From Candidatus Thorarchaeota archaeon (GTDB taxonomy: Archaea > Asgardarchaeota > Thorarchaeia > Thorarchaeales > Thorarchaeaceae): a stretch of DNA of 27,006 bases. The stretch covers positions 1 to 27,006 of the forward strand of contig JBHLRZ010000039.1 in assembly GCA_048882045.1 (NCBI GenBank). Reading direction: 5' to 3'. The notes beneath the pieces were generated by a model, which was given only the letters and a program-made list of their open reading frames with translations, was not told where the DNA came from and made no database searches. The translations under genes and the position numbers were made by a program. Shown here piece after piece: positions 1 to 26,281 of this stretch (position 1 is the stretch's first letter; every line of letters begins with the position of its first letter).

Positions 1-213
1 GGAGAGTATCTATCAGTTCAGTTGGACTCCAATGGGATCCCGCATGTTGCTTGGTCTGATGGCAGGAACAATGAGATGGACATTTGCTATGCTCACGGAG
101 TCAATGAAACAACAGCGTATCCAGACATGGTGACTATTATCACAGGGTCAGTGATTTTCGCGGTTGTGATTATTCTGATATACGCAATAAGACGTCGGAG
201 TAGTAAAGAATAG
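1..213 (+). CDS. C-terminal fragment of a membrane-anchored extracellular protein (beta-propeller/BNR-like repeat, C-terminal TM helix)
   Basis: Frame open from base 1 (GEYLSVQLDSNGIPHVAWSDGRNNEMDICYA), then a hydrophobic helix and basic tail RRRSSKE; runs off the left edge. Confidence 0.7.
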   Translation, partial: GEYLSVQLDSNGIPHVAWSDGRNNEMDICYAHGVNETTAYPDMVTIITGSVIFAVVIILIYAIRRRSSKE

Positions 214-269
214 GGAGTAACAATGAAGATTCCCCTTTCACACAACCCAGTCATCCCCTATCCCTACTC
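212..269 (+). repeat. Degenerate copy of the dispersed repeat family
   Basis: AGGGAGTAACA...GATTCCCCTTTCACACAACCCAGTCATCCCCTAT matches the 23646 copy at 24/34 positions by manual alignment. Confidence 0.5.
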
Positions 270-285
270 AGATGGAGATAAATAA

Positions 286-300
286 CATGACAGCGTTATA
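286..300. promoter_or_regulatory. Putative autoregulatory operator (TATAACG-N-CGTTATA family)
   Basis: CATGACA-G-CGTTATA directly after an AT-rich TATA-like box (277-285) and 20 nt before ATG 321. Confidence 0.5.
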
Positions 301-320
301 CAGAAAAGGTTGTTTTCTGA

Positions 321-707
321 ATGCGTCCTCCATGTGAATCAATTGTGTCTGCTGTCCTTCCTGCCATTCGTTCTCTAATCGCTCGAGAGCTCATTGAGAA
401 CCACTCCATGACTCAGACACAAGTCGCGGAAATTCTGGGTACAACACAATCAGCTGTCAGTCAGTATCAGAAGCAGAAACGAGGTGACCAATTGACTGAT
501 GCACTTGGATCTTTACCTGAGGTAAAAGAGGCGATTGAGAACCTTATTGTCAAAATCACTTCGAAGGACAGACTAGAGAAAGAATCGGTCAAGACAATCT
601 GTTCAATCTGCATGTCCCTGAGGACTGACGGAACGATTTGTGCAATACATCACACTCATTCTGAGGGGCAGGAAGATTGTGATGTATGCAGGCTAGTGAC
701 CGACTGA
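321..707 (+). CDS. Archaeal HTH transcriptional regulator (COG2522-like) with Cys/His metal-binding tail
   Basis: MRPPCE start; HTH MTQTQVAEILGTTQSAVSQY; C-terminal CxxC...CxxH...CxxC. Confidence 0.85.
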   Translation: MRPPCESIVSAVLPAIRSLIARELIENHSMTQTQVAEILGTTQSAVSQYQKQKRGDQLTDALGSLPEVKEAIENLIVKITSKDRLEKESVKTICSICMSLRTDGTICAIHHTHSEGQEDCDVCRLVTD

Positions 708-725
708 CCTGTTTCTCAAAAGAAA

Positions 726-805
726 TATAACGGCGGAATAATAATAGCAGCGCTAGGTATAACGCCGTTATACTTCAGGGTCTGTCAAGTATGACGTTGT
801 TGTAT
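726..805. promoter_or_regulatory. Phased array of three palindromic sites, 32-bp period
   Basis: Half-sites start at 726, 758 and 790; central site GTATAACGCCGTTATAC (757-773) is a perfect palindrome around one base. Confidence 0.6.
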
Positions 806-939
806 TTCTGGCATACACACGAATCATCCTCCCAATGTCAGAAGCACAGGCTTTCCAGATACACCCATACACGGAGTTGTTGAACAGCATCAACAGGACA
901 TCTCGCTCAGATCCTATTTCTAGGATTTGGGTCAATTAG

Positions 940-974
940 GGGCTCTGTCGTTTTTCCCGACAGAGCCCTTTCTT
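940..974 (+). terminator. Strong hairpin, possible terminator
   Basis: GGGCTCTGTCG (940-950) / CGACAGAGCCC (958-968), 11-bp perfect stem followed by TTTCTT. Confidence 0.45.
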
Positions 975-987
975 GAAGCGAGGTGAG

Positions 988-1027
988 CGTTGTACTTTGG
1001 AATCTGTCAAGGATAGCGGCGTTATGC
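988..1027. promoter_or_regulatory. Degenerate duplicate of 766-805 carrying further operator-like sites
   Basis: 27/40 identity to 766-805 including TCTGTCAAG; contains GATAGCG-G-CGTTATG (1012-1026). Confidence 0.5.
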
Positions 1028-1150
1028 TCAGCGTGTTCAGAGGTCTAAATGACATCTAGGAGTAGATGAAAGAATATACGTAAGGCATCAACAATTGGCT
1101 ATTTTTTCGGAACGGTTTATTTATTGAAACCAACACATGGTGGAAATGAA

Positions 1151-1762
1151 ATGTCTCGATCAATCTATGTCTATGCAGGACTCTTTGGCCCAATCATTTA
1201 CACGATAATTCTCTTCACTCTTGGGGCTCTAGAACCAGGATACAACCCGATTAGTCAATCCATGAGTGAACTGGGTGATGTCGATGCTCCTTATGCCATT
1301 GTCATGAACACTCTTGGTTTTCCCCTGTTGGGCATCTGTTTCATGCTCTTTGCTGTAGGACTACACCAGAATATAACATCGGGCGAAGGCACTAGAATTG
1401 GACCCTTTTTGATTGTAGCATCAGGTGTTTTTCTTGTTCTGACAGGAATCTTTCAGTGTGATGCAGGTTGTATCGATGTGACAACCATTGGCGAACTACA
1501 CAGTTTCTTTGCAACCTTAGCTGCTCTTGTGATGATTCCCGTCCCACTTGCAATAATACCACGAATATATTCGAATCATTCCTGGCGCTCCTATGTGTGG
1601 TTTAGTTGGGCAGTAATGATCCTGACAAGCCTATTCTCTCTTCTATACATGTTTCCGGACCTTCAACCTTTTGAGGGATTGCTTCAACGTCTTGCGATTG
1701 CTGGTCCACTCATTTGGATGATGATAACAGCAGTCAAAATTCTAGGAGAAGGTAACCAATGA
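1151..1762 (+). CDS. DUF998-family membrane protein
   Basis: PGYNPISQSMSELG, GIFQCDAGC, LH and GLLQRL motifs; 5-6 TM helices; ATG 1151 preferred over TTG 1124. Confidence 0.85.
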   Translation: MSRSIYVYAGLFGPIIYTIILFTLGALEPGYNPISQSMSELGDVDAPYAIVMNTLGFPLLGICFMLFAVGLHQNITSGEGTRIGPFLIVASGVFLVLTGIFQCDAGCIDVTTIGELHSFFATLAALVMIPVPLAIIPRIYSNHSWRSYVWFSWAVMILTSLFSLLYMFPDLQPFEGLLQRLAIAGPLIWMMITAVKILGEGNQ

Positions 1763-2226
1763 CGCTTCAGAACTCTTTAGCCAGATATCATAGGGTTGTA
1801 CTATACGTGACTACACTTGGATTGGCTGTTTATGGTGTGATGGCAATGATAAACCCTGAAGTACTCGCTGCAGGATTTCATACATTCACTGACCAGGACT
1901 GGCTACTGTTCCAAACAGGAAACAGTGTTGTTGCTGCGTACATCGTCCTCCTGTGGAGGCTTATTGGGATTTTCAATTTGATGGCAGGTGTAGTATTATC
2001 ATTCATAGTTTGGAAGTGGCTCAAGTTTGGAAATAGTTGGTCTTGGATCACTTTGTTCACTGGTACAATATTGGCATATCTAGGCCCAATAATAACGGAC
2101 CTTACAGTACAGAGTATAGAGATCTTTGAGGTGATTGAATTTGCTCTATTTGGTCTCTTTCTAATAACGATGCTTCTTATGAGGAACAAATACTGGGCAG
2201 CTCTTGAAAAAGATGGGGGAATGTAA
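1759..2226 (+). CDS. Hypothetical 4-TM membrane protein
   Basis: ATGA overlap with the DUF998 stop; four hydrophobic segments. Confidence 0.7.
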   Translation: MTLQNSLARYHRVVLYVTTLGLAVYGVMAMINPEVLAAGFHTFTDQDWLLFQTGNSVVAAYIVLLWRLIGIFNLMAGVVLSFIVWKWLKFGNSWSWITLFTGTILAYLGPIITDLTVQSIEIFEVIEFALFGLFLITMLLMRNKYWAALEKDGGM

Positions 2227-2280
2227 AGTAAGCTTACCTCGAATATGAAATCACATGGTAACCAAGATGGGTGATGAAAA

Positions 2281-2646
2281 ATGAATTCAAAAGAATCTTT
2301 GATACTACTAGTGCATGCAATCGTGATCTACTTTGTATGCTTTGCAGTGATGGGAATAAGCATGGCAACGCTGACCATTGATATGGCTTTGATAGCACAT
2401 GCTGCAGCCGCACCGTTTGTTTCAGCGATCTTCTCATACATATACTATAAGAAATTCAACTATACAAGCCCGCTCGTCACAGCGTTGGTGATAGTTTTCA
2501 CAGTAATCTTTCTCGACTTCTTTCTAACTGCTACGATAATCCTTCAAGACTATGCAATGTTCTATAGTGTAATTGGTACTTGGATACCCTTTGCATTGAT
2601 TTTCACAGCAGCATTGTTAGTTGGTATCTATATGAATAGGGATTGA
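2281..2646 (+). CDS. Hypothetical 4-TM membrane protein
   Basis: GGTGA RBS-like motif upstream; four hydrophobic segments. Confidence 0.7.
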   Translation: MNSKESLILLVHAIVIYFVCFAVMGISMATLTIDMALIAHAAAAPFVSAIFSYIYYKKFNYTSPLVTALVIVFTVIFLDFFLTATIILQDYAMFYSVIGTWIPFALIFTAALLVGIYMNRD

Positions 2647-2751
2647 TTGGTTAGACTGTTTGGAGGATGTGAGGTTGGAAGAACGTGGCGACGAAAGGAC
2701 AGTGTGTGGACATTTTGATTGGTATTGTGAATTATAAAGAGATGAACAAAA

Positions 2752-2952
2752 ATGGAAGAAATTAAAGCAGATTTGGCATCAGAGGGTCTTTCCCCAAGGA
2801 AACTAGTAAGTCTCGTCCTATACGCAGTTGCATTAGCGATGGGAGTTATTACAATAATACTACCAATGCTCGGCCAATCAGTCGATCAATCTCTTTCTGG
2901 GATTGCTCTGATTTGTCTGGGAATTGCTGGTCTTGACCAAATTACGAATTAA
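2752..2952 (+). CDS. Small 2-TM membrane protein
   Basis: 66 aa with two hydrophobic helices; followed by a terminator. Confidence 0.65.
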   Translation: MEEIKADLASEGLSPRKLVSLVLYAVALAMGVITIILPMLGQSVDQSLSGIALICLGIAGLDQITN

Positions 2953-2956
2953 CAGC

Positions 2957-2988
2957 AAAACCCGTGTCACTGACACGGGGTTTTTTTT
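2957..2988. terminator. Hairpin plus T-tract terminator between convergent genes
   Basis: AAAA-CCCGTGTCA-C-TGACACGGG-G-TTTTTTTT. Confidence 0.8.
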
Positions 2989-3037
2989 ATTCGGATGGTC
3001 GGTTCATTTGTGAAAATCTTTGGTAGTCTAATATGAT

Positions 3038-3571
3038 CTAAAGCCTTCCAGTGCGTCTCATCCAACTGCGAATCCTGCTTTTAGCCCATCGATAATGATT
3101 GGCAGTGTTGGCGAGTATAAATCCACCAATAGTATCCTTACCAGTCCATTGATACCTACCAATCTTAAAGAGGTCCTTTTCAGGAATATCATTTACAGTT
3201 TCAAGTACCTTTTCAAAAGAGGATTGGAACTCCTTCTTGATGTCCGATAGTGCTCTGCCCTGATACTTGTCGAAAATTCTTTGATTCAGAATACGTAGTT
3301 GGCTCCACTTGAGTCCAGGAGCAGGAGTTTCAGGAACCTCTCCTCTTAGTCCTGCATCATACCATCCGAGGAATCTCTGTTCCCAATCGAAGAGATGAGC
3401 TAGTATGTCCTTAACGGACCACTCTCCTATTACACCTGACTCTATCATGTCTGCATCGGAGAGAGAGGTGAGATTCTTCTCTAGTCTTCGTCGTTCAATA
3501 TGGATACTCTCCATTATTCTCTCTTTGTTCCAACGTTTTCTCATATTGATTAACTCCTCTTTCACAATCAT
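3038..3571 (-). CDS. ClbS/DfsB (DUF1706)-like DinB-superfamily four-helix bundle protein
   Basis: WSVKDILAHLFDWE, PAPGLKWSQL, W-TG and NTANHYRWA motifs; true start may be the internal MRKRW. Confidence 0.8.
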   Translation of the reverse strand: MIVKEELINMRKRWNKERIMESIHIERRRLEKNLTSLSDADMIESGVIGEWSVKDILAHLFDWEQRFLGWYDAGLRGEVPETPAPGLKWSQLRILNQRIFDKYQGRALSDIKKEFQSSFEKVLETVNDIPEKDLFKIGRYQWTGKDTIGGFILANTANHYRWAKSRIRSWMRRTGRL

Positions 3572-4236
3572 CTATTACTATGATTACTATCAATGAGAAC
3601 CATTAGGTCCTTGAATAACATAGGATCGGTGAAAAATGCCCCCATCATCCCGATGAATCGAGTTGTGTCGTTCATCCAGCTTATATCGATTTCACTGATA
3701 ATCGATGTTAATTGCTCTGAGCTCTCGCATCTCTTGAACAACTGTCTTACAGTCTTTTCCCAAAGTTCAAAGAATCTCTCCAATAGTTCCTTAATCTTGG
3801 ATTTTTCTGCTATAGAAACCTCAAAAAACTCTGAGATTAAGCTGGACAACTGCATAAGATAGTTTTGTCCTGCACTTGAGCGCCACCATTTCTGTATTTC
3901 CGCACTCTCTTGGGGAAAGAAGACATCTGCAGTGCAGCTGTACAATTTCTCTATTTGACGACTGCCTTCATATTTTCTATAACCCACTACTTTTACCAAT
4001 TCTGACTTCTCTAGGTTGTATAAATCACGATAAAGAGTCTTCAATGCCCTGCTGTAGGTTGGCCTATCATGATTAACTAGAAATTGTCTATGAATCTCTT
4101 TGACAGTCAGGAACTTGCAACAAAGAGCTCGAATAATCTCGATATGATTGTTCATTAATGCATGTTGATCCTTGTCAAGTAGCTTGATCCGGGCCGGTCT
4201 TTCTCCTATTGTATCCTTGTAGGCAGAAGTAGTCAT
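3568..4236 (-). CDS. Winged-helix transcriptional regulator
   Basis: LTVKEIH...KTLYRDLYNLEKSELVKVVG...EKLY wHTH pattern; GAGGTGA RBS upstream. Confidence 0.7.
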   Translation of the reverse strand: MTTSAYKDTIGERPARIKLLDKDQHALMNNHIEIIRALCCKFLTVKEIHRQFLVNHDRPTYSRALKTLYRDLYNLEKSELVKVVGYRKYEGSRQIEKLYSCTADVFFPQESAEIQKWWRSSAGQNYLMQLSSLISEFFEVSIAEKSKIKELLERFFELWEKTVRQLFKRCESSEQLTSIISEIDISWMNDTTRFIGMMGAFFTDPMLFKDLMVLIDSNHSNR

Positions 4237-4290
4237 CTAATCACCTCATATAATGCACTCATTGATACTTGGTCTTTGGGGGGAAAAGGA

Positions 4291-4339
4291 TTTATATAAA
4301 CATTCTCTCTATCATAGCACGGTTCTCATATAATGAGAA
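4291..4339 (+). promoter_or_regulatory. TATA box and palindromic operator in a divergent promoter
   Basis: GAAAAGGA-TTTATATA (BRE/TATA-like, 4291-4298); TTCTCAT-ATA-ATGAGAA (4323-4339). Confidence 0.55.
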
Positions 4340-4355
4340 TCGTTGAGGGATAAAT

Positions 4356-4583
4356 ATGGAAAACCGGCTTCATGCAATTGACTATGATAAGATATTGAAA
4401 CGGATTGAAGAGATACTCGAATCATATGGAATAAGTTTGAATGATCTGTTGAGCCATACGGGAAGGAACCGATTCTCTGAATATGAAAGAAGTGACTGTT
4501 GTTCACAAGTAGATACAGAAATGTGCTGTCCCGAAGGTGAACAGTTACTTGACGACTTTGATGAGTTTGATTGGCAAACATAG
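4356..4583 (+). CDS. Small acidic protein with two Cys-Cys pairs (possible metal-binding peptide)
   Basis: 75 aa, SDCCSQ...MCCPE, acidic tail; lies behind TATA box and operator. Confidence 0.55.
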   Translation: MENRLHAIDYDKILKRIEEILESYGISLNDLLSHTGRNRFSEYERSDCCSQVDTEMCCPEGEQLLDDFDEFDWQT

Positions 4584-4637
4584 ACTCTTCCAATCATGAG
4601 TTCTGATGTTTGTAAGTAGTTCAGGACGGGATTTGGA

Positions 4638-5354
4638 GTGAGAGGATCTGATGAACTGAGTTCGACTCCTAGGAGTATCAGTAACCAATCAGGAGACAAA
4701 TTCTCACAAGTGCAAACACCATTGCTCCTAGTTGAACTCTCAATTGTCATGCTATTCTTTTTTTGTCTAACTTTCCTAGTAGGGGAAGTGGCATTTGGAG
4801 TCCCAATTGTTTACATTCTAGCAGATTCAGTAAGACACAATCGAAGAAAGGAAGATTTTGGTTTAAAACATGAAAGTTTTGTTAGCGATCTCCATAAGAA
4901 TGCAAGTCTGGTCGTTTTAGGTGTTATTGTTATCCAGAGTACAATAGTCTTGGGGAGTCTAATACTCTTTCCACCCTATCTCCAGTATATTATAACTAAT
5001 CGAGCTTGGTCGATTAACATGAGTTTTGGAATGTTCGTTTTCATGCTATTCTCAATACCGCTTACAACAATGCTCGAAGAAGTCATATTTAGAGGACTAG
5101 TTCAGGAAAGACTTGGTTGGTTCTTCAATAAAAAAGCATCTTTGACAATAGCATCATTCCTGTTTGCTGCAATTCACTGGATACCGGATGATGTATTCAT
5201 TATCCTGATTGACTTGATAGCGATAGCAGCTGGTGGTTTTGTTTATGGAATAATATACATGAGGTGCAGGAATGTCTACATAGCATGGTTTGCTCATATG
5301 TTTTCAGACCTGTACGGCATAGTTCTGTTATTTATCATTTTCAATGTCTTGTGA
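4638..5354 (+). CDS. CPBP (Abi/CAAX) intramembrane glutamic endopeptidase
   Basis: EEVIFRG, FAAIH and AHMFSD motifs; start uncertain. Confidence 0.85.
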   Translation: MRGSDELSSTPRSISNQSGDKFSQVQTPLLLVELSIVMLFFFCLTFLVGEVAFGVPIVYILADSVRHNRRKEDFGLKHESFVSDLHKNASLVVLGVIVIQSTIVLGSLILFPPYLQYIITNRAWSINMSFGMFVFMLFSIPLTTMLEEVIFRGLVQERLGWFFNKKASLTIASFLFAAIHWIPDDVFIILIDLIAIAAGGFVYGIIYMRCRNVYIAWFAHMFSDLYGIVLLFIIFNVL

Positions 5355-5433
5355 ATAGAGTGACCCGTTGGTCAATCACGGAGTTTCACCATTTGTTGCT
5401 ATGAGTCCAAATACATCAAAATGAAGAAGGTGC

Positions 5434-5808
5434 TCACTGAATGAAGCCACCAATGAATTGAGATTTGATACTCACATCAATCCCAGATCCTGCGACCTTC
5501 TTCATCATCTCCAAGGCGTAATCGTTGGGTGTGCCATAAATCTCAATGCTGGTTGGTTCAATGAGTTTGTAGGTTATTTTTGTTCGCTGATCAGCTCCCT
5601 GTAATTGCAAATCCAAAGATTCTGCATTAGGAAAGACACGGATGATGTCCACTTCAGTAGCATCGTCATTGATGTATGCAAGCTGAAGAATCGTGCCGCT
5701 CTTGCTTTTCTTTGTCAACGGGATGCTTTTCAGGTAATGATTATTGAAATCATCAAGCATCCCTTCCTTTATGCGGTTACGGATGATGAATACAACGGGG
5801 TCGGTCAT
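5434..5808 (-). CDS. Dimeric alpha/beta-barrel (ABM-like) protein
   Basis: 124 aa; IKEG..DDF, FPNAESLDLQ and IEIYGTP pattern; GGTGA RBS. Confidence 0.6.
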   Translation of the reverse strand: MTDPVVFIIRNRIKEGMLDDFNNHYLKSIPLTKKSKSGTILQLAYINDDATEVDIIRVFPNAESLDLQLQGADQRTKITYKLIEPTSIEIYGTPNDYALEMMKKVAGSGIDVSIKSQFIGGFIQ

Positions 5809-5832
5809 CTGTCACCATTCTTCAAACGATTC

Positions 5833-6264
5833 TTAGGTTTCAGACTCGATGAGTTGCTTCATATTGCGGCCGCTCCGCTCCATGCGGCTAGTTATGAAAC
5901 TCTTATCCATTGACTCATCCATTCCAGGAATGTCAATAGAGGTCGTCACAGTGGTTTGGGAATCGTTTACAGCCTTGAATGTTATTCGTCCGCGCATTTC
6001 AGCAGGGCCATCATGAATGACCGTTCCAATCACTTGGTTAGGTTCAAATTCCACCACTTCCATGGTCCCCTCAATGGGAGTCCCACTACGGTTGTTACGC
6101 CTCTGAATAATCGTCCCGACTCCAATTGGACCATCTGACTCCAGCCAGAGCTCTATGTCTGGATCCCAGCGAGGGTGGTTGCGGACGTGCTGTTCAGCAA
6201 CGAAATGGAAAACTGTGGTCACAGGTCGATTGATTACTTGCGAATATCGAATTTGTACTGCCAT
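5833..6264 (-). CDS. SRPBCC / polyketide cyclase family protein
   Basis: INRPVTTVFHFVA, NHPRWDP, GPIGVGT and VVEFEPN motifs; ATG 6264. Confidence 0.85.
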   Translation of the reverse strand: MAVQIRYSQVINRPVTTVFHFVAEQHVRNHPRWDPDIELWLESDGPIGVGTIIQRRNNRSGTPIEGTMEVVEFEPNQVIGTVIHDGPAEMRGRITFKAVNDSQTTVTTSIDIPGMDESMDKSFITSRMERSGRNMKQLIESET

Positions 6265-6276
6265 TGCTCTCGCCAG

Positions 6277-6300
6277 ATATATTAACAATAGTTAATATAT
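6277..6300. promoter_or_regulatory. Perfect inverted repeat, putative operator of the SRPBCC-ABM pair
   Basis: ATATATTAAC-AATA-GTTAATATAT, 12 nt upstream of ATG 6264. Confidence 0.6.
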
Positions 6301-6391
6301 TCTTTGGGCGATATAATCCTTCCGTTAGGTAATAATCAAATTATATTGACTAGCCATTGGACTATTTGTAAAGAGCCTAAATCAAAGTGAT

Positions 6392-6516
6392 AGGGTGGAT
6401 TAACAGGTGAGGGTTACAAAAGTTCCGTGTCGGGTAAACTGATGATTGCACCGCGTTCCCCGACGTTTGACCTGTACATCTCTCGGTCCGAAGACAGAGC
6501 AAGCTGTTTCACAATT
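6392..6516 (+). repeat. Dispersed repeat, long form with internal insertion
   Basis: AGGGTGGATTAACAGGTGAG...AAAGTTCC...CCTGTACATCTCTCGGTCCGAAGACAGAGCAAGCTGTTTCACAATT; right half nearly identical to the 10406 and 26178 copies. Confidence 0.85.
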
Positions 6517-6680
6517 CGATGGCTCAAGAGGAAGATTGCTTATTATTATTGCTTCAATCTCTAAAATTACTTGAAATAACACCTGGATCTCTACCTGTCA
6601 GAATCAACAGAATCAGTCTCGTCAATGGCTGTGACAATAAGAGAAGCAATTTGTCCAATTCCTCTTCCTGTCGCTCATCA

Positions 6681-7475
6681 CTATTCACTTTCCATCGACT
6701 CCAGTTCCTCGACTTTCTTGATCGCAGCATCAGCAATACCAATGGCGAATGGAGCTGTAAATAACGAAATCATGATTAGAGCAACTCCGGTCTGGGATAC
6801 CCAAGGTATGGCTCCTGAAGCTGCAAGTAGAATATAGAGTGCCATAAACAAAACAGAGGGAAACGCGAATGCTCCAAAGACTAGGAAGTTCCCTCTGTTG
6901 GGGGACCGCATGAGAAACCAGTCTTGAGAAATGAGAAGAAGAACTGATAGTCCTAAGTCATATTTCCTAGCGAGTTTTACGATATTGTTGATTGAGATTA
7001 TAGTTAGCCCAATGCTTAGTGCGAAACAAACAAACCCGAAAACAAAACCAAGCGGATTGGTCACAAACATCCCTATTAAACTGATGAACATGAATAGAAT
7101 ACCGAAGAAACTCCCGATTTGGCTTTTGAATAGCTCGAGCTCTTCTCTGGGAGTCATTGAGATAACTGCGGAGAGAACACCGTATCTGTCAACCTGAGGT
7201 TCTTGTCTAACCTGGTCTATCAGAATGAGTGCGTTTCGACCAAGGTTACTTATCTTGTACTCACTATCCACACTCTCAATAAGACCTGCCTCTGTCAACT
7301 CCTTGAGATGATAATTGAATGTACCACTTTCTTGAGAAGGAATAAGACCGAGGATTTGCATCATCTCTGTGTATGACGCACTACCTTTCTTAGCGATGAG
7401 TTGCATGATCTCTCTTCTCCTGGAGTTTGACAGTGCCTTCAGCACTCCTTCATCATGGCCATTTGAATTCATCAT
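6681..7475 (-). CDS. ArsR-like wHTH regulator fused to about 4 TM helices
   Basis: VLKALSNSRRREIMQLI...GTFNYHLKEL..AGLIE followed by hydrophobic segments; ATG 7475 or 7472 preferred over TTG 7559. Confidence 0.8.
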   Translation of the reverse strand: MMNSNGHDEGVLKALSNSRRREIMQLIAKKGSASYTEMMQILGLIPSQESGTFNYHLKELTEAGLIESVDSEYKISNLGRNALILIDQVRQEPQVDRYGVLSAVISMTPREELELFKSQIGSFFGILFMFISLIGMFVTNPLGFVFGFVCFALSIGLTIISINNIVKLARKYDLGLSVLLLISQDWFLMRSPNRGNFLVFGAFAFPSVLFMALYILLAASGAIPWVSQTGVALIMISLFTAPFAIGIADAAIKKVEELESMESE

Positions 7476-7580
7476 CAGTATCAAGTAGTATCTTGTTCTG
7501 TAGTTATTTAAGCCATTTTCACGAAATTTTTCGACAACAACTTCTATTCGAATATTCAATACCTTGTAAATGCAAAATAG

Positions 7581-7663
7581 AAAGAGTGCTCAACAGAGAG
7601 CGGATGGGAAAGTTCCTTGTTCACCCGACTCTATCAGCCTCTACTCCTTCAGGAGCTGATGTC
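7581..7663 (+). repeat. Dispersed repeat copy
   Basis: AAAGAGTGCTCAACAGAGAG...GGAAAGTTCCTTGTTCACCCGACTCTATCAGCCTCTACTCCTTCAGGAGCTGATGTC. Confidence 0.8.
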
Positions 7664-7686
7664 TTATGATTTCTTTAGAAACTGGT

Positions 7687-17638: not shown

Positions 17639-17674
17639 ATCTGCCACCTTAGTCTATTTTCAGCACAAGCCCTT

Positions 17675-17705: not shown

Positions 17706-17816
17706 GTGCTGAGTTGATGCAGCTAGTTGAATACTCAGATTCCCACTTTGTGAGAAGTCGTTCTTTCGAATGGAGTGTAGGGAAACTCATGACACGCAAC
17801 GTCAAGGAGGAAGGTG

Positions 17817-19886: not shown

Positions 19887-20213
19887 CTAGTCCTCCGCGT
19901 TTTTCCTAAGGGATTGGTTCAAAACCGTAATAAGTACATCGAGGGGCGGAACACCACCGTAGAGGGCTAACTCTTCATTAATGAAGAGTGCTGGCGCGAT
20001 TGCAAACCCATAATCTTCAAAGTGTGGTCGAATTTGACTGATGAGTTTCTCGTAACCTCCAAACATCACAGCTGTAACAGGCAAAATCTCAATCGATGCA
20101 GTCAACCCTATCTTCTCAAGAGTCTCCTCAAGTCGTGACCGATACTGTTGATCATATGACTCCATGCGTGGGTCACAGCATGCTGCTGATAAAATTACGA
20201 GTTTGTTAGTCAT
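19887..20213 (-). CDS. Small thioredoxin-fold protein with vicinal Cys (ArsD/MTH895-like)
   Basis: SAACCDP near the N-terminus; APALFINEEL..YGGVP; overlaps the arsA stop and abuts the copB start. Confidence 0.65.
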   Translation of the reverse strand: MTNKLVILSAACCDPRMESYDQQYRSRLEETLEKIGLTASIEILPVTAVMFGGYEKLISQIRPHFEDYGFAIAPALFINEELALYGGVPPLDVLITVLNQSLRKNAED

Positions 20214-21126
20214 ATAGTATTGCTCCTATCCTTCTCAAGCTAGCGATACCATGGATGTCTGTTTCGAGAAGAGGGACCATCCTTCTTGACATGCCGTTGA
20301 ACCTTGCATCGATGTCTTGCAGGTACACTTCCTGGGTCGCTTTTCTTCTCTCGAGAAACCAATTCCCATCGAGAACATTTGTCTGAATGACCTCATTTAC
20401 AATAAGTGCCTGCACAGTTATGGAAAATCCAGCCAAATCCTCAATAGCTCTTGAGGTTTCAGCGATAGGTAGCCTTTCTGGCAGGAGGACAAGACTGAAT
20501 GCTGTCTTCTTGGAGTCTGAGAGGTTTCTTATTGCCTCATCGTATCTTTTCTTTTCGCTCTCTAGCCCTTCAATCATATCTTGATCGCTGGCCCAACCAA
20601 GCGCTGTAGACAATTCAGTTCTACTCTTAATCTGTTGAGCCATAAAATCTGACCAATCAAAAGGCATTGAAAGCTCCCTAAGGGTGTGTCCAGTAGGAGC
20701 AGTGTCGAAGATAATCCTATCATGTTTCTGATTCTGCATGAAACTCACAAACTGGTCGAAGGCTGCCATCTCTTCCGCACAGGGCGTATTCATCACTCCG
20801 CTGCCAAATAGGCTCGTGAGGTTCTGCGTGAAATTCTGAAGCCGTTGCTGGAAAGCTCCTGTTGCTTTCTTTGGGTTGATAGTGAGTCCACTCAAGTTCT
20901 CAAAACCCTTTATTTTAGTGAGACTTGTTTCGCCAATATCTTGTTCAAATATCGCTGGAAGACTTACTGTGGGATCAGTGGCGATTACGAGGGTATCATA
21001 ACCTTGGTCTGCTAACCAAACGGCTGTCGAAGCCGCCATAGTAGTCTTGCCTACTCCACCTTTTCCTCCAAAAAAGAGGAATTCGTGGTTTTTCATTAAT
21101 CTCGTGAATTCATCTGTAGTTTTCAT
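20206..21126 (-). CDS. arsA: ArsA/GET3-family ATPase, single-domain, Cys-containing (ArsA-like)
   Basis: GKGGVGKTT, TDP, PCAEE and DTAPTGHT; ATG 21126 preferred. Confidence 0.85.
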   Translation of the reverse strand: MKTTDEFTRLMKNHEFLFFGGKGGVGKTTMAASTAVWLADQGYDTLVIATDPTVSLPAIFEQDIGETSLTKIKGFENLSGLTINPKKATGAFQQRLQNFTQNLTSLFGSGVMNTPCAEEMAAFDQFVSFMQNQKHDRIIFDTAPTGHTLRELSMPFDWSDFMAQQIKSRTELSTALGWASDQDMIEGLESEKKRYDEAIRNLSDSKKTAFSLVLLPERLPIAETSRAIEDLAGFSITVQALIVNEVIQTNVLDGNWFLERRKATQEVYLQDIDARFNGMSRRMVPLLETDIHGIASLRRIGAILYD

Positions 21127-21212
21127 CGGTATAACCGATATTGGATTGACCGATATAGATATAATCATTCGTGTTGGAATCCGATATTGACCGCAAGGGT
21201 GGCTGATATTGA
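21123..21212. promoter_or_regulatory. Putative PadR operator plus extra half-sites at the arsA start
   Basis: Reverse complement of 21123-21143 equals 17679-17699 at 20/21 positions; extra C(C/T)GATAT half-sites near 21150, 21181 and 21203. Confidence 0.7.
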
Positions 21213-21262
21213 CTTAGTAGAACGGTAAATCCTAGTACGAGAACTGAAATTGTATAAATATG

Positions 21263-21331
21263 AGGGAGTGCTTAACAGAGTGAGGAGAGGAAAGTTCCCT
21301 GTTAACCAAATCCCGTAAGTTTCTACCTCTT
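21263..21331 (+). repeat. Dispersed repeat copy (core)
   Basis: AGGGAGTGCTTAACAGAGTGAG...GGAAAGTTCCCTGTTAACCAAATCCCGTAAGTTTCTACCTCTT. Confidence 0.8.
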
Positions 21332-21613
21332 GCCAGAGTAGAGACTCGGTGAAATTTCTAGGGCTGTTTTTCTAACGCTCTCTTCAGACGGGAATTTTCT
21401 GAGAAGCAACCGACCTGATGGATAGACTGTGATAGATTGTCCATCTTCACCTTCAAGAATCAATATCACAGGTAATTTAACTCGAATCCTCATCCTAGTG
21501 AGTGATGCTAATTCTTCACTGACCGATATAAGATCAAGTTTGGTCCTCTGCCTGGATTTCACCTCAAAAGCTGCACCATCAGAACAAAGTTTGATGATGA
21601 AAGGGTCAGACAT
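21323..21613 (-). CDS. Small hypothetical protein (TBP-like / ThiF C-terminal-like fold suspected)
   Basis: Overlaps the thiI stop; KLC, KLDL and ITVYPSGRLLLR pattern. Confidence 0.6.
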   Translation of the reverse strand: MSDPFIIKLCSDGAAFEVKSRQRTKLDLISVSEELASLTRMRIRVKLPVILILEGEDGQSITVYPSGRLLLRKFPSEESVRKTALEISPSLYSGKR

Positions 21614-22643
21614 TCTCACTACCCTCCTTTAGGATTAATACTTCGGAATCAGAAATTTCAGCAGCTATCCAACCCATGTCCATCTTCTCTTCTATCGGTT
21701 TAATAGTATCAGGATTTGAATAGACCGTGGGGTACTTGGGAGGTAATGAGCAACATGAAACAGCTTCATGGGCAAATTCGTATGTGCGAATCCTCATTGC
21801 CATTTTCAAAATCTCGTCCTTGTCATTTCCAATGCAGGGTCTCAAGATGGGAATCTCAGTTACTGCAGTTTCCTCAGCAAGTAGATTCCTGGTCGTCTGA
21901 GAGGCCTGTTCTCCTATTATCTCGCCAGTTACAATTGCATCAGCATTTTCTATAAAAGCCACTTCTTGGGCCAGTCGATACATATTTCTCCTGCAAAAAA
22001 CACATGTCATCTTTCGTGGAGCATGTCGAAGCACTTCAGTCAAATCTTCGCCATGGGGGACAACATACATCTTAATCTCATGACCATAGATGTACTCAGT
22101 GAGCCTCTTTGCTTGTCGGATTGCTAGGTTTCGAGTAGATTCATCCCCAAAAGGAACATTGTCGAAATGGAGGAAGACCGGCACACAACCTCTTTTCATC
22201 ATCTTATAAGCTGCAATAGGAGAGTCAAGACCTCCGGAAATTGTACACACGACTTTTCCTTGACTTCCTGTGGGCATGCCACCCACACCATCAGTCCACT
22301 CCTTTGACAGGAACACCTTGTCATCGCATACCTCTCTGTTATAGGTGTCCGTTAAGAGAGAAGACTCAGTATCTGGTGAAACTATCACTGGTGCTGCGTG
22401 TGAAACGCCAAAGACTCCAGATGCAACTTTGTAAACCTCTAAGGCGTCGCTTGTACTGATGTAGATGAAGTGGCACACAGGTAGGATTTTGTCGAATGGA
22501 ATGTCATGGTATCTCAATGCAGATTTGAGATTCCTAATGAGTTGTGTAGTCAGATGTTTTTTGCTTTCTGATGAATGATACTGAAGCTCATCACATCTGA
22601 GCAACACTCCATCATATCCTTCCAATTGTTTCACTGCTTCCAT
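21606..22643 (-). CDS. thiI: ThiI-like PP-loop sulfurtransferase, Fe-S type, THUMP domain apparently shortened or absent
   Basis: GGMPTGSQG, SGGLDSP, MMKRG, CVFCRR, TGE..GEQASQT, RPCIG.DK and SCC..P.YP. Confidence 0.8.
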   Translation of the reverse strand: MEAVKQLEGYDGVLLRCDELQYHSSESKKHLTTQLIRNLKSALRYHDIPFDKILPVCHFIYISTSDALEVYKVASGVFGVSHAAPVIVSPDTESSLLTDTYNREVCDDKVFLSKEWTDGVGGMPTGSQGKVVCTISGGLDSPIAAYKMMKRGCVPVFLHFDNVPFGDESTRNLAIRQAKRLTEYIYGHEIKMYVVPHGEDLTEVLRHAPRKMTCVFCRRNMYRLAQEVAFIENADAIVTGEIIGEQASQTTRNLLAEETAVTEIPILRPCIGNDKDEILKMAMRIRTYEFAHEAVSCCSLPPKYPTVYSNPDTIKPIEEKMDMGWIAAEISDSEVLILKEGSENV

Positions 22644-22800
22644 CAGTTATGAATCCAAAGAAAAACTTCGCATCTTTCAGTGAAATTTCGCTGATATTCA
22701 GATAAAGCTGATGACATGGTTGTTCTGTCAACTGGACTAACGAATTGACCAATTCTCAATGCTTAAGACTGCCAGATGAAAGTTGATTTTGAATAGAAGA

Positions 22801-23610
22801 ATGAATGCTAGTAATAAGAAGTTCGACAAGATCAGCAGAATGTTTAGTGGAAAGACGATTTTGGTTGCGTTTAGTGGGGGTGTGGACAGCACTGTTCTCG
22901 CACACATTGCTAGAGAATCAGCAGCTAAAACGAAGCTATTGACTATTGATAGCATTACATTCCCAAGATCAGAATTGAAAGCAGCTGAAGATGTAGCAGA
23001 GGAACTGGATATCGAACTAGAAATTATACAGGTTGACGAGCTCTCAAACAAAGAACTAGTCAAGAATCCTGTAGATAGATGCTATCATTGCAAGAAAGAA
23101 CTATCATCTGTCTGGTTGGAAGCCGCAAAGAATCTTGGTATAGATTTAGTCGTAGAAGGGACTAATGCTAGTGAAATGGGTGGACATCGACCTGGAGCTA
23201 AAGCGCTTGAGGAAGCTGGGATTGTTTCACCTTTCATAGATGCAGGTGTTACGAAGGAAGAAATTCGGACTTATGCAAGAGAGGTGGGACTTTCAGTTGC
23301 AGACAAACCATCCATGGCTTGTCTCTCAAGCAGATTTCCTTACGGTACTGAAATAACCGAAGAGCGTGTTAGGAAAATTGATAGAGTAGAGAAGAAAGTG
23401 AAGGAGATTTTTGGCATCGAGTGTGTGCGTGCAAGATTCCACGGAGATTTGGTACGGATTGAAGTAGGGAGAGATGAGAGAGAGAGATTATTTGATGAAA
23501 GCAAATTGGATAAGCTAAATAAGTTTGCTAAAATTGTTGGATTCAAGTATGTCACATTTGATGCTTTTGGATATAGAACCGGTGCTATGAACGAGGTTCT
23601 AGAGTCTTAG
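22801..23610 (+). CDS. larE: ATP-dependent sulfur insertase LarE
   Basis: AFSGGVDS, NP.DRCYHCK, GTNA...HRPG, KPSMACLSSRFPYG, R.R.HG...RIE and GYRTG. Confidence 0.92.
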   Translation: MNASNKKFDKISRMFSGKTILVAFSGGVDSTVLAHIARESAAKTKLLTIDSITFPRSELKAAEDVAEELDIELEIIQVDELSNKELVKNPVDRCYHCKKELSSVWLEAAKNLGIDLVVEGTNASEMGGHRPGAKALEEAGIVSPFIDAGVTKEEIRTYAREVGLSVADKPSMACLSSRFPYGTEITEERVRKIDRVEKKVKEIFGIECVRARFHGDLVRIEVGRDERERLFDESKLDKLNKFAKIVGFKYVTFDAFGYRTGAMNEVLES

Positions 23611-23645
23611 CGAATTGAGTATCGTGCATTATGACTTATGCAAAA

Positions 23646-23689
23646 GAGATAGTTCCCTGTTCACCCAACCCTGTCAGCCTTTACTTCTT
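23646..23689 (+). repeat. Dispersed repeat copy lacking the left end
   Basis: GAGATAGTTCCCTGTTCACCCAACCCTGTCAGCCTTTACTTCTT aligns closely to 7607-7649. Confidence 0.8.
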
Positions 23690-23787
23690 ATCCATCTAAA
23701 GATTCCATTATGAATCCAAATTCTTTAACAGAAACAACAGACAGATTGACATGAGATATATAGACAAGAGTTGAAAAAAAGTTAGGA

Positions 23788-26163
23788 GTGAGAGAAGTGA
23801 CCTCTAGAAGTCAAATGATGCTAAATCGCTTTCTTGGATCTAAGACGCATTTGAGTATTGAAAGGACTAAGTTGCATACTGATTCGATGAAATCATCCGA
23901 GGGAGAACCTCAAATAATCAGACAAGCGAAGGCTCTCGCAAACATACTGAAAGGCATCTCTGTGACGATATACCCAGACGAGCTAGTTGTAGGTAGTGTT
24001 ACGGACAAAGTTCGGGGTGCAATGGTTTATCCAGAAGCTCATGATTCGCGAATTGTTCCAGAGCTTGAAGAGCTGAAAACAAGAGATTGCCGAGTTATAG
24101 AAGTCACACAAGAGGACATCAGTGCTATGCAAGAGGAAATCGCTTCCTATTGGACTGATGCCTCCTTGATAGCGCAAGCTGACAAGAAGACTCCTGAGAA
24201 GATAATGGAAACCTTGTACGCAGGTTCTGTCTTCATTCTCACAGAGGTCGCTGGATTTGGCCACTTAAGCATAAACTATCCTATGCTTTTCTCAATGGGC
24301 TTTGAAAAATTCAACGAAATAGCAGAGAAACGTATTGACGAATATAGTGGAACAACAGATACAGAGCTACTCAACAAGATCGACTTCTATAAGGCAGCTA
24401 AAATCGTAGCTGATGCAATAATCCAATTCGCAAATCGATATTCCAAAAGTGCAGTGATGTTAGCCCAAGATGAGAAGGATTTCAAGAGAAAGGCAGAGCT
24501 TGAGAGGATTGCTGAAATATGTCAATGGGTTCCTGCGAAACCACCAAGGAACTTGCACGAGGCAATTCAGTTCATTAGATTCACCCACCTTGCTCTCACC
24601 ATCGAAACATATGATGGGCAAGCAATCTCAATGGGACGGATTGATCAATACCTTCAACCATTCTATGAGAATGATATCAAATCTGGAAAATTGACAAAGG
24701 AAGGAGCACTAGAGCTTGTAGAAATGCTCTGGATTAAGACGAATGAACATGTCCCTGCATTTGATAGCTTCACTGGGATGTATTTTGAGGGGTTGTTGAC
24801 AACACAGGCAGCAACAATTGGGGGTATTGATGAAGAGGGATTTGATGCAACAAACGAGATGACTTACCTGATTCTACAAGCTACAAAGAATATTGGACTT
24901 CCCCTGCCAAATGTCCATGTCAGGATTCATCAGAAGAGTCCTTCAGATCTTATGGGAGAGATTGCCACTGTTGTTGCTTCAGGTGCGAATAATATAGCAA
25001 TTTTCAACGATGAGGTAATTGTCAAAGCATGGAAAAAACAAGGGATTTCGGAAGAGGAGGCTAGAAATTATGCAACTGTTGGATGTGTGGAGCTGGCTCC
25101 ATTTGGCAACAGTTTCACGTCATCAGATGCAGCACTCTTCAATCTCGCTATGTGTTTAGAGCTTGCGTTGAACAACGGTGAAACATTACTATTGGGAGCA
25201 GAACTTGGTCTCAAGACTGGCGACCCTCTGAAGTGGCAATCAATTGATGATGTTATCCAAGCATTTCAAAAACAAGTTTCATACTTAGTGGGACTCATGG
25301 CAGAGGGTTCAAACTCTTTCGAACAATTGAATATGGATATGATGCCAACCCCCTTACTTTCACTCTGTGTAGAGGATTGTTTTGAAAAAGGTCGTGACAT
25401 TACGAGCGGTTCTGCAAAGTACAATTTCACTGGTGTTCAGGGAGTTGGGATGGCTGACGTTGCGGACTCACTCGCAGCAATCGATCAGATTGTCTTCAGA
25501 GAAAAGAAAGTGAGTATGCATGAACTCATAGTCGCCTTGAGGGATGGATTTGAAGATCAGGAGTCACTTAGACAATTATTACAAAATAGGGCTCCTAAGT
25601 ATGGTAATGACGAGAAGTTCGTAGATGATTATGCTCAACTCGTGTCACAAATATATAGTGAAGAAGTGGAAAAGCACAAGAACATCAGAGGGGGAGCATT
25701 CATCCCTGGTATGTACTCAGTGACTACGCATGTAGCGTTTGGTCTGTTCACAGGCGCACTACCCAGTGGGCGCTTACCATCCACTCCTTTGAGTAATGGT
25801 GTTTCACCTGTAATTTTAGCTCCTTCAAAAGGTCTGACTGCAGTTCTTAATTCAGTCACAAGCATTGATTATACACTCTATCCAAATGGAGTTGCCTTCA
25901 CACTAGCATTGGATCCTACTTTTGTGGAGGGAAAAGATGGCTCAAAGTCACTTATTTCCATATTGAAATCTTATGTGGAACTAGGAGGAATGCACATACA
26001 GTTCAACTTGATCGATCCAGAAACCCTTCTTGAAGCGCAAACCAACCCCAGCTCATATCGAAATCTACTTGTAAGAGTTGCAGGGTATAGTGCATATTTT
26101 GTGGACTTAGGGGAAGCAGTTCAAAATGAGATTATTGGAAGATTCCAGAAGTCTATACATTGA
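23788..26163 (+). CDS. Glycyl radical enzyme (PFL2/PflD-like), substrate unknown
   Basis: GRIDQYL, single-Cys GCVE loop, APKYGND and RVAGYS glycyl loop; 791 aa. Confidence 0.92.
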   Translation: MREVTSRSQMMLNRFLGSKTHLSIERTKLHTDSMKSSEGEPQIIRQAKALANILKGISVTIYPDELVVGSVTDKVRGAMVYPEAHDSRIVPELEELKTRDCRVIEVTQEDISAMQEEIASYWTDASLIAQADKKTPEKIMETLYAGSVFILTEVAGFGHLSINYPMLFSMGFEKFNEIAEKRIDEYSGTTDTELLNKIDFYKAAKIVADAIIQFANRYSKSAVMLAQDEKDFKRKAELERIAEICQWVPAKPPRNLHEAIQFIRFTHLALTIETYDGQAISMGRIDQYLQPFYENDIKSGKLTKEGALELVEMLWIKTNEHVPAFDSFTGMYFEGLLTTQAATIGGIDEEGFDATNEMTYLILQATKNIGLPLPNVHVRIHQKSPSDLMGEIATVVASGANNIAIFNDEVIVKAWKKQGISEEEARNYATVGCVELAPFGNSFTSSDAALFNLAMCLELALNNGETLLLGAELGLKTGDPLKWQSIDDVIQAFQKQVSYLVGLMAEGSNSFEQLNMDMMPTPLLSLCVEDCFEKGRDITSGSAKYNFTGVQGVGMADVADSLAAIDQIVFREKKVSMHELIVALRDGFEDQESLRQLLQNRAPKYGNDEKFVDDYAQLVSQIYSEEVEKHKNIRGGAFIPGMYSVTTHVAFGLFTGALPSGRLPSTPLSNGVSPVILAPSKGLTAVLNSVTSIDYTLYPNGVAFTLALDPTFVEGKDGSKSLISILKSYVELGGMHIQFNLIDPETLLEAQTNPSSYRNLLVRVAGYSAYFVDLGEAVQNEIIGRFQKSIH

Positions 26164-26177
26164 GTATTATAAAAGAG

Positions 26178-26281
26178 AAAGGGTGCTCAACAGTGGGCGG
26201 CAAGAAAAAGGTCCCATAAGCTAACCCGCCCTTAGCCTGTACCTCTCTCTGTCCGAGGACAGAGCAAGCTATTTCACAATT
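26178..26281 (+). repeat. Dispersed repeat, full-length copy
   Basis: 90/105 identical to 10406-10510; hairpin CTCTGTC-CGAG-GACAGAG. Confidence 0.95.

Follow-up and report, generated by a model that had tools for sequence, protein, structure and literature searches.

A variable gene-cassette array in Thorarchaeota whose repeats are very probably spare copies of the 16S rRNA 3' trailer

Introduction

Genomic islands accrete in tandem at the 3' ends of tRNA and tmRNA genes; one example is the tycheposons of Prochlorococcus, reportedly described by Hackl et al. in 2023. Like islands at tRNA and tmRNA sites, the locus analysed here contains direct repeats copied from the 3' portion of a stable-RNA gene and the sequence downstream of it, and it forms one hot spot of repeated insertions whose content varies among close relatives. 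Unlike those islands, it very probably targets the trailer of the 16S rRNA processing stem, its units are single genes, no integrase was found in unit or genome, and its repeats are long (~90-170 nt) and mosaic.

Integrons and CALINs have been reported in Archaea and are enriched in Asgardarchaeota (Ghaly et al. 2022, PMC9668308). With sedentary integrons and CALINs the array shares co-oriented sites at one locus, short, mostly single-gene and highly variable cassettes, and a cargo rich in toxin-antitoxin parts, GNATs and unknowns; as in CALINs, no integrase lies nearby. In contrast to integrons, its sites are conserved in sequence, very probably as 16S trailer copies, whereas attC hairpins are conserved in structure, and the array would be anchored on an rRNA gene instead of intI/attI, with only 60% of its genes co-oriented.

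Archaeal pre-rRNA processing stems carry bulge-helix-bulge motifs (for example PMC7038931, PMC10351888). As in such stems, the true leader and trailer in Thorarchaeota flank 16S and form the long helix that is expected for endonuclease processing and pre-16S circularisation. In the known systems each gene is served by a single leader and a single trailer, whereas here as many as 10 or more spare trailers occur. No published description of such 16S-trailer arrays was found.

Results

The window, a stretch of 27,006 nucleotides, belongs to the 3.6-Mb assembly of a Candidatus Thorarchaeota archaeon (G000). The original prediction for it had been that about 10 same-strand copies of an anonymous motif divide it into unrelated gene modules. 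Using an nhmmer model trained on 98 copies from other genomes and on zero G000 sequence, we found 7 strong and 2 weaker copies, the strong matches all on the + strand, confirming that the repeat family is real. Nine of the proposed copies were thus recovered; the remaining one, a left-end fragment at 15718-15739, has no significance by itself under the independent model (E 9.9), its identity to the 26178 copy being its sole support. All copies in the window lie between ORFs, as had been predicted, and gene ends are found 0-35 nt from the repeat. The features are listed below, with the repeats named by the identity that we consider very probable.

199-285, + strand: trailer copy, degenerate (the '212' copy), weakest full copy; independent model 226-285, E 0.003; seed model 199-266
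286-6381, no single strand: multi-gene block with HTH_3, DUF998, DinB/DUF1706, CAAX protease, SRPBCC-like protein and unknown ORFs (Pfam)
6382-6520, + strand: trailer copy, long variant with an internal ~24-nt insertion and a 3' hairpin; split matches, E 0.02 and 0.13
6521-7567, - strand: cassette with an ArsR/DUF7347 HTH protein plus C-terminal extension (6681-7559; Pfam)
7568-7707, + strand: trailer copy, A type, best copy; E 4e-26; 80% identity to the G006 true trailer
7708-9703, - strand: cassette with a single fused protein, SAM methyltransferase plus CdhD/HgcA-like domain plus 2x[4Fe-4S] (7687-9618; Pfam)
9704-9806, + strand: trailer copy, A type, diverged; E 2e-9
9807-10393, + strand: cassette with a 152-aa ORF of unknown function (9917-10375; ORF call)
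10394-10511, + strand: trailer copy, B type, hairpin CTCTGTCCGAGGGCAGAG; E 8e-17
10512-16348, no single strand: multi-gene block with FilR1-like regulator, transglutaminase-like protein, CCG/Fe-S protein, FAD oxidase, flavin reductase and DGC-domain protein (Pfam)
15718-15739: left-end repeat fragment, 21 nt; 86% identity to the left end of the 26178 copy
16349-16438, + strand: trailer copy, mosaic joint; model match 16349-16407, E 3e-6
16439-21251, - strand: block with 127-aa ORF, PadR-like regulator, P-type ATPase, 108-aa ORF and ArsA ATPase (Pfam)
21252-21335, + strand: trailer copy, A type; E 4e-17
21336-23643, no single strand: block with 98-aa ORF, ThiI and PP-loop ATPase (LarE-like) (Pfam)
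23644-23743, + strand: trailer copy, right (16S-proximal) part only; model positions 43-151, E 3e-16
23744-26160, + strand: cassette with a glycyl radical enzyme (23788-26163; Pfam)
26161-26285, + strand: trailer copy, B type, with hairpin; model match 26161-26276, E 2e-21
26286-27006, - strand: first part of the following block, with ORF 26332-27006 running off the contig end (ORF call)

Several of the gene labels first given were loose: 'DGC' denotes the Pfam DGC domain PF08859 and not a diguanylate cyclase, and 'cupin', 'Trx' and 'TIGR04076' are without Pfam support at E<=0.001. The 152-aa ORF at 9917-10375 had no match in the Pfam search.

Outside the window, the G000 assembly holds only 2 matches at E<=0.01, one on contig C93 and one at a contig end (C34:29835-29961). 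C93 and the window start overlap by 77 bp, and the C93 copy is co-oriented after the contigs are joined. Such clustering and strand bias are therefore far beyond chance, and the genome-wide scan for scatter or mixed strands showed confinement to one locus and one strand. A MITE, an IS end or a REP-type dispersed repeat was rejected, the family occupying one locus and one strand with none else in the 3.6 Mb; an Rfam scan of the window returned nothing relevant, and the repeats match no Rfam family.

The repeat is not the anonymous motif of the original prediction, since its copies are, with high confidence, spare copies of the 16S rRNA 3' trailer that together form a variable cassette array. 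At intact loci of Thorarchaeota relatives, a leader arm is followed by 16S, the true trailer and then a co-oriented array of trailer copies; the 16S genes were confirmed by Rfam, and in this genus the 16S gene stands alone with the array downstream. In the precursor, trailer and 16S leader pair to form a ~65-bp helix. The trailer supplies the downstream arm of this helix and then a T-rich run, CACCCTTTTCATTTTGCA, as read in the 16S direction. In four genomes, one of them G000 (C34), a single oppositely oriented copy aligns ~110 nt upstream of the 16S 5' end. Cofolding of leader and trailer, performed for the true pair in G006 and G017, gave a long helix of -80 to -85 kcal/mol, in which 3-nt and 5-nt bulges are predicted and no clear 3-4-3 bulge-helix-bulge arrangement could be placed. 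Copies from the window align with the true trailers of G006 and G013. The 6392 copy, which scores as two weak matches because its internal insertion splits it, aligns over its full length, GATTGCACCGCGTTCCCCG insertion included, to the genuine 16S trailer of G013; the 10394-10511 copy is similar to the G013 true trailer and 93% identical to the 26225-26283 part of the last copy; and the 23644-23743 copy is 89% identical to the G006 true trailer across 57 nt. The last 34-43 nt of 16S are also present as fragments beside some array copies, and in genus g23 a 270-nt repeat unit begins ~26 nt before the 16S 3' end. In G000 itself the 16S gene is unassembled, and leader (C34) and array are on separate contigs; from the order in its relatives, the window would be part of an array hanging on the 16S gene.

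The best conserved parts of the copies are the T-rich distal end and the stem base. The 26 nt of the distal end are ~84% conserved over all copies, and columns 19-33 are ~84% identical across genomes. RNAalifold gave no conserved fold for a copy alone. At the centre of the repeat lies a palindrome, GGGAA..TTCCC, which in the B type reaches 9 bp; its pairing (71% vs 32-59% in shifted controls) includes compensatory pair types. Several half-copies break near this palindrome, and many copies are decayed or truncated. The likeness of the left end to the integron box RYYYAAC, noted in the window earlier, extends across genomes (90 of 115 copies, model columns 26-32), and the GTTRRRY (R') box is found at the partner position in 0 of 98. 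Identity with canonical attC, already doubted in the original prediction, is rejected, given the absent R' box, the conservation in sequence and the lack of an IntI match (TIGR02249) in G000. The attC R'' likeness comes instead from the conserved base of the rRNA processing helix. Modules of the pdif/Xer kind were also rejected: their 28-bp XerC/XerD sites alternate in orientation, while the trailer sites are ~90-170 nt and co-oriented, and no PF00589 protein was found in the 5 genomes searched.

Across relatives, we mapped 135 array copies to 30 of 31 contig stretches in 21 genomes, and within every contig they are co-oriented. The 31st stretch (G000 C34) is a leader alone, and the opposite-strand copies on array-bearing contigs are three leaders only. 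Copies are spaced at a median of 1316 bp, with up to 10 or more spare trailers interleaved with protein genes over 10-30 kb. Gene content is nearly all specific to one genome: clustering of the 220 array ORFs gave 154 groups, of which 109 are singletons, with no family in more than 5 genomes and no recurrent gene in or beside the arrays. Their cargo comprises ParE, PIN and GNAT proteins, small membrane proteins, regulators and many unknowns; 60% of genes are oriented like 16S and 40% the opposite way.

Judged by sequence comparison, the copies behave as recombination joints, as originally predicted: related genomes differ in which blocks they carry and in what order, and their homology breaks off within or at the repeats. 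Cross-genome repeat pairs share the left flank alone in 40 cases, the right flank alone in 41 and both in 4. In the window, sub-block 3039-6329 has a counterpart of 85% identity in G004 with different neighbours, and the homologue of ORF 26332-27006 in G004 adjoins the 3039-5354 block instead. The matching joint in G004 is without the ArsR/DUF7347 cassette and without both flanking repeat parts. The methyltransferase cassette is found in G004 (92%) and G006 (79%), both in other contexts, and the joint in G002 that matches its site has one repeat and no cassette. The block of the 152-aa ORF has homologues in G005 (79%) and G002 (85%) with other neighbours, and the glycyl radical enzyme cassette recurs in several Thorarchaeota at 68-86% identity with varying neighbours. 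In the window and in G009 the PP-loop gene lies between repeats; in G017 and G006 its place is outside the detectable array. Both G004 and G002 carry the DGC cassette (15728-16402) at 92-93% identity. At the 16349 joint, the left part matches the repeat beside the DGC cassette of G002 and the right part the repeat beside the next cassette; G002 holds ~2.5 kb between the two repeats that match this joint, giving an empty and an occupied version.

Discussion

How are cassettes exchanged at these joints? Mosaics of trailer types (BB|AA, BBB|A and AA|B) occur among the copies, with junctions in at least two different intervals; the estimated switch points are scattered, and some of their support intervals do not overlap. 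Copies in G017, whether near to 16S or far from it, match the trailer of their own genome at 82-100% identity, and a cassette common to G011 and G017 has host-type repeats in each. No significant match to tyrosine, SSV-type or serine recombinases or to Cas1 (PF00589, PF16795, PF00239, PF01867) was found in 5 genomes of the genus, which are MAGs of 71-99% completeness, so that a recombinase of unknown family or on an unbinned plasmid or virus would escape the search. PF00239 gave one sub-threshold match among the 5 genomes searched. The control genomes did give matches, and for PF00589 these came from 14 of 14 controls. Mosaic copies, scattered switch points, host-type repeats and the lack of a recombinase match together favour homologous recombination and gene conversion. 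We give about an even chance to the statement as a whole, namely that the array of trailer copies serves as a set of recombination joints exchanged by these general processes, with the resident true trailer presumably taking part. A segment between two copies would loop out as a circle bearing one copy, which would then re-enter at any copy by a single crossover, in the same cell or, after transfer, in a relative. The T-rich end is probably a transcription terminator as well, for cassette genes oriented like 16S. Of the earlier suggestion of an undescribed capture platform, the recombination joints are supported. A dedicated platform is only a possibility, and recombination between ordinary trailer copies could explain the data.

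Some observations weaken the homologous-recombination reading. In the conserved core (model columns ~19-84) every pair of copies shares 65-85% identity to begin with, so that change-point estimates resolve little, and a fixed crossover may lie inside it. The central palindrome would suit a dimeric site-specific enzyme, and both it and the half-copies broken near it count against general recombination, which alone does not account for how foreign genes first came to be flanked by trailer copies.

A site-specific system resembling an integron is a possible but rather unlikely explanation. Here, a recombinase that is unrecognised or acts in trans would bind the trailer, perhaps on its central palindrome, and would cut out and insert circular cassettes at one defined crossover, with the true 16S trailer as attI. 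It would fit the co-oriented sites ~1.3 kb apart with mostly single genes between them, a cargo like that of sedentary integrons (ParE, PIN, GNAT, small membrane proteins, regulators and unknowns), the compensatory changes in the palindrome and the half-copies broken near the centre, the ~84% conservation of the distal 26 nt, and genes ending 0-35 nt from the repeat. However, neither tyrosine, SSV-type or serine recombinases nor Cas1 matched in the five genomes, no gene recurs in or beside arrays, only 60% of genes are co-directional, and mosaic junctions fall in more than one interval. Furthermore, 23S-trailer, tRNA 3'-half and C43/C56 arrays coexist in the same genome, and a single sequence-specific enzyme would not serve all of them because their repeats are unrelated.

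We regard as unlikely a dedicated, integrase-free capture of genes, in this lineage of Asgard archaea, at the 3' flanks of stable-RNA genes (16S, 23S, tRNA), in which the resident trailer is copied at each insertion. The copying might be a target duplication of great length, or an RNA-templated process tied to cleavage of the processing stem. Such capture would explain the G017 copies 82-100% identical to their own trailer and the arrays of different repeats in one genome.

Tandem accretion, by which self-integrating viruses, plasmids or islands would have targeted the 16S 3' end, displaced the old 3' end with its trailer and lost their integrases later, appears very improbable. Repeat units that can begin inside 16S (the 34-43-nt 16S fragments and the g23 unit) are a classic signature of integration into stable-RNA genes, and identity in G013 falls roughly with distance from 16S. 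Yet G017 and G006 are without such a gradient, the units are mostly single genes of ~1.3 kb, too small for autonomous elements, and neither an integrase nor a remnant of one was found in the 220 array ORFs or the five whole genomes. Viral contigs yielded no trailer, exact-pattern scans returning chance 16-mer matches only. Finally, it is very improbable that the spare trailers are kept at the RNA level as terminators, as processing signals or for pairing with the 16S leader, in an array duplicated for expression control and not for mobility: the T-rich distal end and stem base are indeed best conserved and 60% of genes share the orientation of 16S and end directly at the repeat, but this leaves near-total gene turnover and homology breaks at repeats unaccounted for, 40% of genes face the opposite way, RNAalifold gave no conserved fold of a lone copy, and many copies are truncated or decayed.

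If homologous recombination between trailer copies is the true reading, an rRNA processing signal also serves as landing pad for a cassette array, which contributes a large share of the accessory genome of a lineage near the eukaryotic ancestor. The array would then be a concrete locus for gene acquisition in Asgard archaea, including genes of bacterial type, and it occurs in genomes without a detected known site-specific recombinase, Xer homologues included. A further question is how 16S maturation proceeds undisturbed by the spare trailers. Scans designed for integrons may overlook or mislabel trailer arrays, and loci of this kind break assemblies, as in G000.

Results

The original prediction described a repeat family that divides the window into cassettes, that is, blocks of genes lying between two copies, and seed-based repeat finding with alignment recovered this family at the positions named then, which confirms the observation. 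An nhmmer model of the copies matched nine window sites, every one on the + strand, and hardly anything across the remaining 3.6 Mb of the assembly (G000). To avoid circularity, a second nhmmer model was made from 98 copies of other genomes only; seven copies in the window still match it (E between 4e-26 and 3e-6), and those near 212 and 6392 were weak matches to it. The site at 15719, a 21-nt fragment, is not significant with this independent model. Genome-wide, the same model found only two further copies in G000:

C93:1580-1703
C34:29835-29961

Contig C93 overlaps by 77 bp the start of C39, the contig that the window spans in full, and its copy therefore extends the array in unchanged orientation. 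Most genes of the window stop about 0-35 nt from a repeat. Pfam matches in the window, FilR1, DUF7347 and a TrmB-like HTH among them, indicated an archaeal host, and the relatives of its glycyl radical enzyme are Thorarchaeota MAGs. Scanned against Rfam with a cutoff of E<=1, the window gave a single hit, which lies inside an ArsR-like ORF, scores weakly and is most likely due to chance:

7437-7479, minus strand: C/D-box sRNA sR41, 20 bits against a gathering score of 54, E 0.87

We show here that the repeats are copies of the 16S rRNA 3' trailer, consisting of the downstream arm of the processing helix and a T-rich end. Of 24 sampled genomes of the genus, 23 have the repeat according to a sequence-only covariance model, and in each of them it is clustered, either on a single contig or on a few. 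On three long contigs a single reversed copy stands at the array edge, beside a 1.6-kb stretch free of ORFs, and alignment of this edge in four genomes, including contig C34 of G000, places the reversed copy about 110 nt upstream of the 16S rRNA 5' terminus and so identifies it as the 16S leader arm; each genome has one leader. Complete 16S genes at the array edge were confirmed by Rfam. The array opens 22-118 nt beyond the 3' end of 16S, and the copy found there is the trailer arm. Leader and trailer arms cofold into a bulged helix of about 65 bp, the processing stem, and the remaining copies repeat the trailer arm in direct orientation, T-rich end included. Judged by its conservation, this T-rich end would probably act as a transcription terminator as well. 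Since the 16S gene of G000 is unassembled, with its first 68 nt alone present at the end of C34, the physical link between the window and 16S is drawn from relatives.

Trailers occur in two variants, A and B. The "optional second hairpin" that had been read from the window is a feature of type B. Type B is the genuine trailer of a relative, G013, and the 6392 copy has an internal insertion in common with it. The 16S gene of G013 (L027:10872-12433) is also about 60 nt longer than those of the relatives G006 and G017 (1562 vs 1502 nt aligned), which suggests an insertion or expansion segment.

Two other anchors were considered and rejected. The window holds no tRNA gene, and the repeat has no relation to the tRNA-Ala gene that lies close to the leader. 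The 23S rRNA is not the source either, its processing stem being unrelated in sequence. On contig C205 of G017, the 16S gene (137,706-139,207, minus strand) and the 23S gene downstream of it (65,200-68,309, minus strand) are unlinked, with about 69 kb between them on one strand, and their separate processing stems are mutually unrelated. That the repeats are not canonical attC sites was borne out as well: the GTTRRRY partner (R' box) is never present, and the RYYYAAC box, which has the form of R'', is the base of the processing helix.

After a single round of model refinement, 135 array copies were mapped in 21 genomes. They lie on 30 of the 31 contig stretches covered; the other stretch, C34, carries the leader alone. 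Copies are co-stranded inside every contig and spaced by a median of 1316 bp (interquartile range 0.8-2.1 kb). The 220 ORFs of the arrays form 154 clusters, 109 of them singletons; the widest gene family reaches at most five genomes, and 60% of the ORFs have the orientation of the 16S gene. Recurrent cargo comprises ParE, PIN, GNAT acetyltransferases, a B12-radical SAM enzyme, small membrane proteins and regulators. Conserved core DNA (M1 aminopeptidase, DUF7521, tRNA-Ala) adjoins the array on the leader side, and the 869-aa gene adjoining the arrays, a candidate "integrase", proved to be this conserved neighbour, an M1 aminopeptidase with HEAT repeats. A family-level scan found multi-copy matches to be typical of this genus, with one or two matches to this model in three other genera. 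Independently of the model, four trailer copies follow 16S inside 3.3 kb in G063, from another genus, and G042 has none within 20 kb of 16S.

The window is homologous to other arrays block by block; the blocks are bounded by repeats and ordered differently from genome to genome. When the 250 bp on each side of every inter-genome repeat pair were compared, 40 pairs were homologous on the left only, 41 on the right only, and four on both flanks. The MTase-HgcA-like cassette recurs in G004 (92% identity) and in G006 (79%), and the matching joint in G002 has one repeat and lacks the cassette. Its gene is as follows:

7687-9618, minus strand: 643-aa fusion of a class I SAM methyltransferase, a CdhD/HgcA-like corrinoid domain and a 2x[4Fe-4S] ferredoxin

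Judged by its presence in G000, G004 and G006 and its absence from the matching G002 joint, this fusion gene has the behaviour of a mobile cassette. The 16349 copy is a mosaic of two repeats of G002: on the left it corresponds to the one that adjoins the DGC cassette, on the right to the one that adjoins the following cassette; about 2.5 kb separate these two repeats in G002. The ArsR cassette is absent from G004. As a test of precise excision, the comparison of G000 with G004 gave an unclean junction, where G004 has 44 nt unique to it and no more than a half-copy. What stands of the original prediction as a whole is that the repeats are recombination joints of a cassette array. The joints themselves are spare 16S trailers, and a dedicated capture platform goes beyond the evidence.

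The lack of a recombinase, first noted for the window, extends to profile searches of five genomes of the genus (G000, G005, G006, G013 and G017). No tyrosine recombinase (PF00589), Xer included, was found in the five, with 14 of 14 control genomes positive, four archaea among them, which implies that the five lack a recognisable XerA for chromosome dimer resolution. SSV-type integrases (PF16795), serine recombinases (PF00239; one sub-threshold match) and Cas1 (PF01867) gave no significant match in the five genomes, with positive controls in each case, and the integron integrase TIGR02249 had no match in G000. No recurrent gene was seen within the arrays or next to them.

Discussion

Change-point estimates from high-identity pairs are scattered over the entire repeat, some with non-overlapping intervals; inside the conserved core their power is too low to tell homologous from site-specific recombination. 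Copies are mosaics of A and B type with junctions in at least two intervals. Those of G017 are 82-100% identical to its own trailer independently of distance, a 100%-identical copy lying 6.9 kb from the 16S gene, and a cassette common to G017 and G011 has repeats of the host type in each genome; the copies of G000 are heterogeneous. The scattered breakpoints, the mosaics and the host-type copies fit the general machinery, which would recombine and gene-convert the trailer copies. We put the chance that homologous recombination or gene conversion is the main engine at about even.

It is possible, if somewhat doubtful, that an unrecognised site-specific system acts on the repeats, as a central palindrome with compensatory changes and half-copies broken near it would suggest. 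That the arrays are decayed self-integrating elements is improbable. The last 34-43 nt of 16S adjoin some copies as fragments and the repeat unit of G063 begins inside the 16S end, both of which resemble the signature of integration at stable-RNA genes. An element bearing an integrase was not found, and viral contigs had no match to two specific site patterns, their ten 16-mer matches being confined to the seed and attributable to chance. Such fragments of the 16S end lie inside arrays, remote from the true 16S, and three of the following four begin one common cassette in G017, G011 and G004:

L026:4935-4968
L025:17319-17352
L079:12866-12908
L084:12995-13028

A role purely at the RNA level has very little to recommend it. 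A structured RNA or attC-like hairpin was rejected: single-copy, single-strand folds seldom surpass those of shuffled sequences (z -3.1 to 0.04, the outliers being both strands of the 21258 copy at -1.9 and -3.1), and RNAalifold finds no consensus structure among the copies.

The trailer array works in the manner of sedentary integrons or CALINs (attC clusters without an integrase) and of tRNA-gene accretion hot spots, yet it fails features that define each of them. Clusters of attC are reported to be enriched in Asgard genomes, and in the tables of the same study the number of attC sites in Thorarchaeia genomes goes down to two (Ghaly et al. 2022, PMC9668308). Our literature searches found no published account of rRNA-trailer cassette arrays. 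We class the locus as a hot spot of gene accretion that is tied to a stable-RNA gene and has an integron-like organisation, and consider it of high interest because of its rRNA anchor, its Asgard host lineage and the absence of a detectable recombinase.

Further repeat families were observed in G000. Contig C1 (end at 258,175) terminates in the 3' end of a 23S gene, and its repeats share ACCTAG..TTGT..CAA...AACGATA..CTCC..TTTCATTTTG with the 23S trailer, so that they look like a smaller 23S-anchored array. A second family of co-oriented direct repeats, about 140 nt long with the core GGCAGAAAGTCAGGTCCGAATATCTCGCGTGCCATGACGATC, is unrelated to the trailer and has no Rfam match. On C49, the repeated unit is the 3' half of a tRNA together with the adjoining flank (..GGTCACGAGTTCAAATCTCGTCCGGCCCACCA), and its copies form a tRNA-anchored array in the style of the 16S-trailer array.

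C1, about 252,680-256,820: three direct repeats, 23S-trailer-like, 1.4-5.5 kb behind 23S
C43, 3.4-22.5 kb: nine copies of the second family
C44, 20.3-21.7 kb: two copies of the second family
C56, 11.1-14.6 kb: three copies of the second family
C49, 780-16,940: six direct copies of the tRNA 3' half and flank
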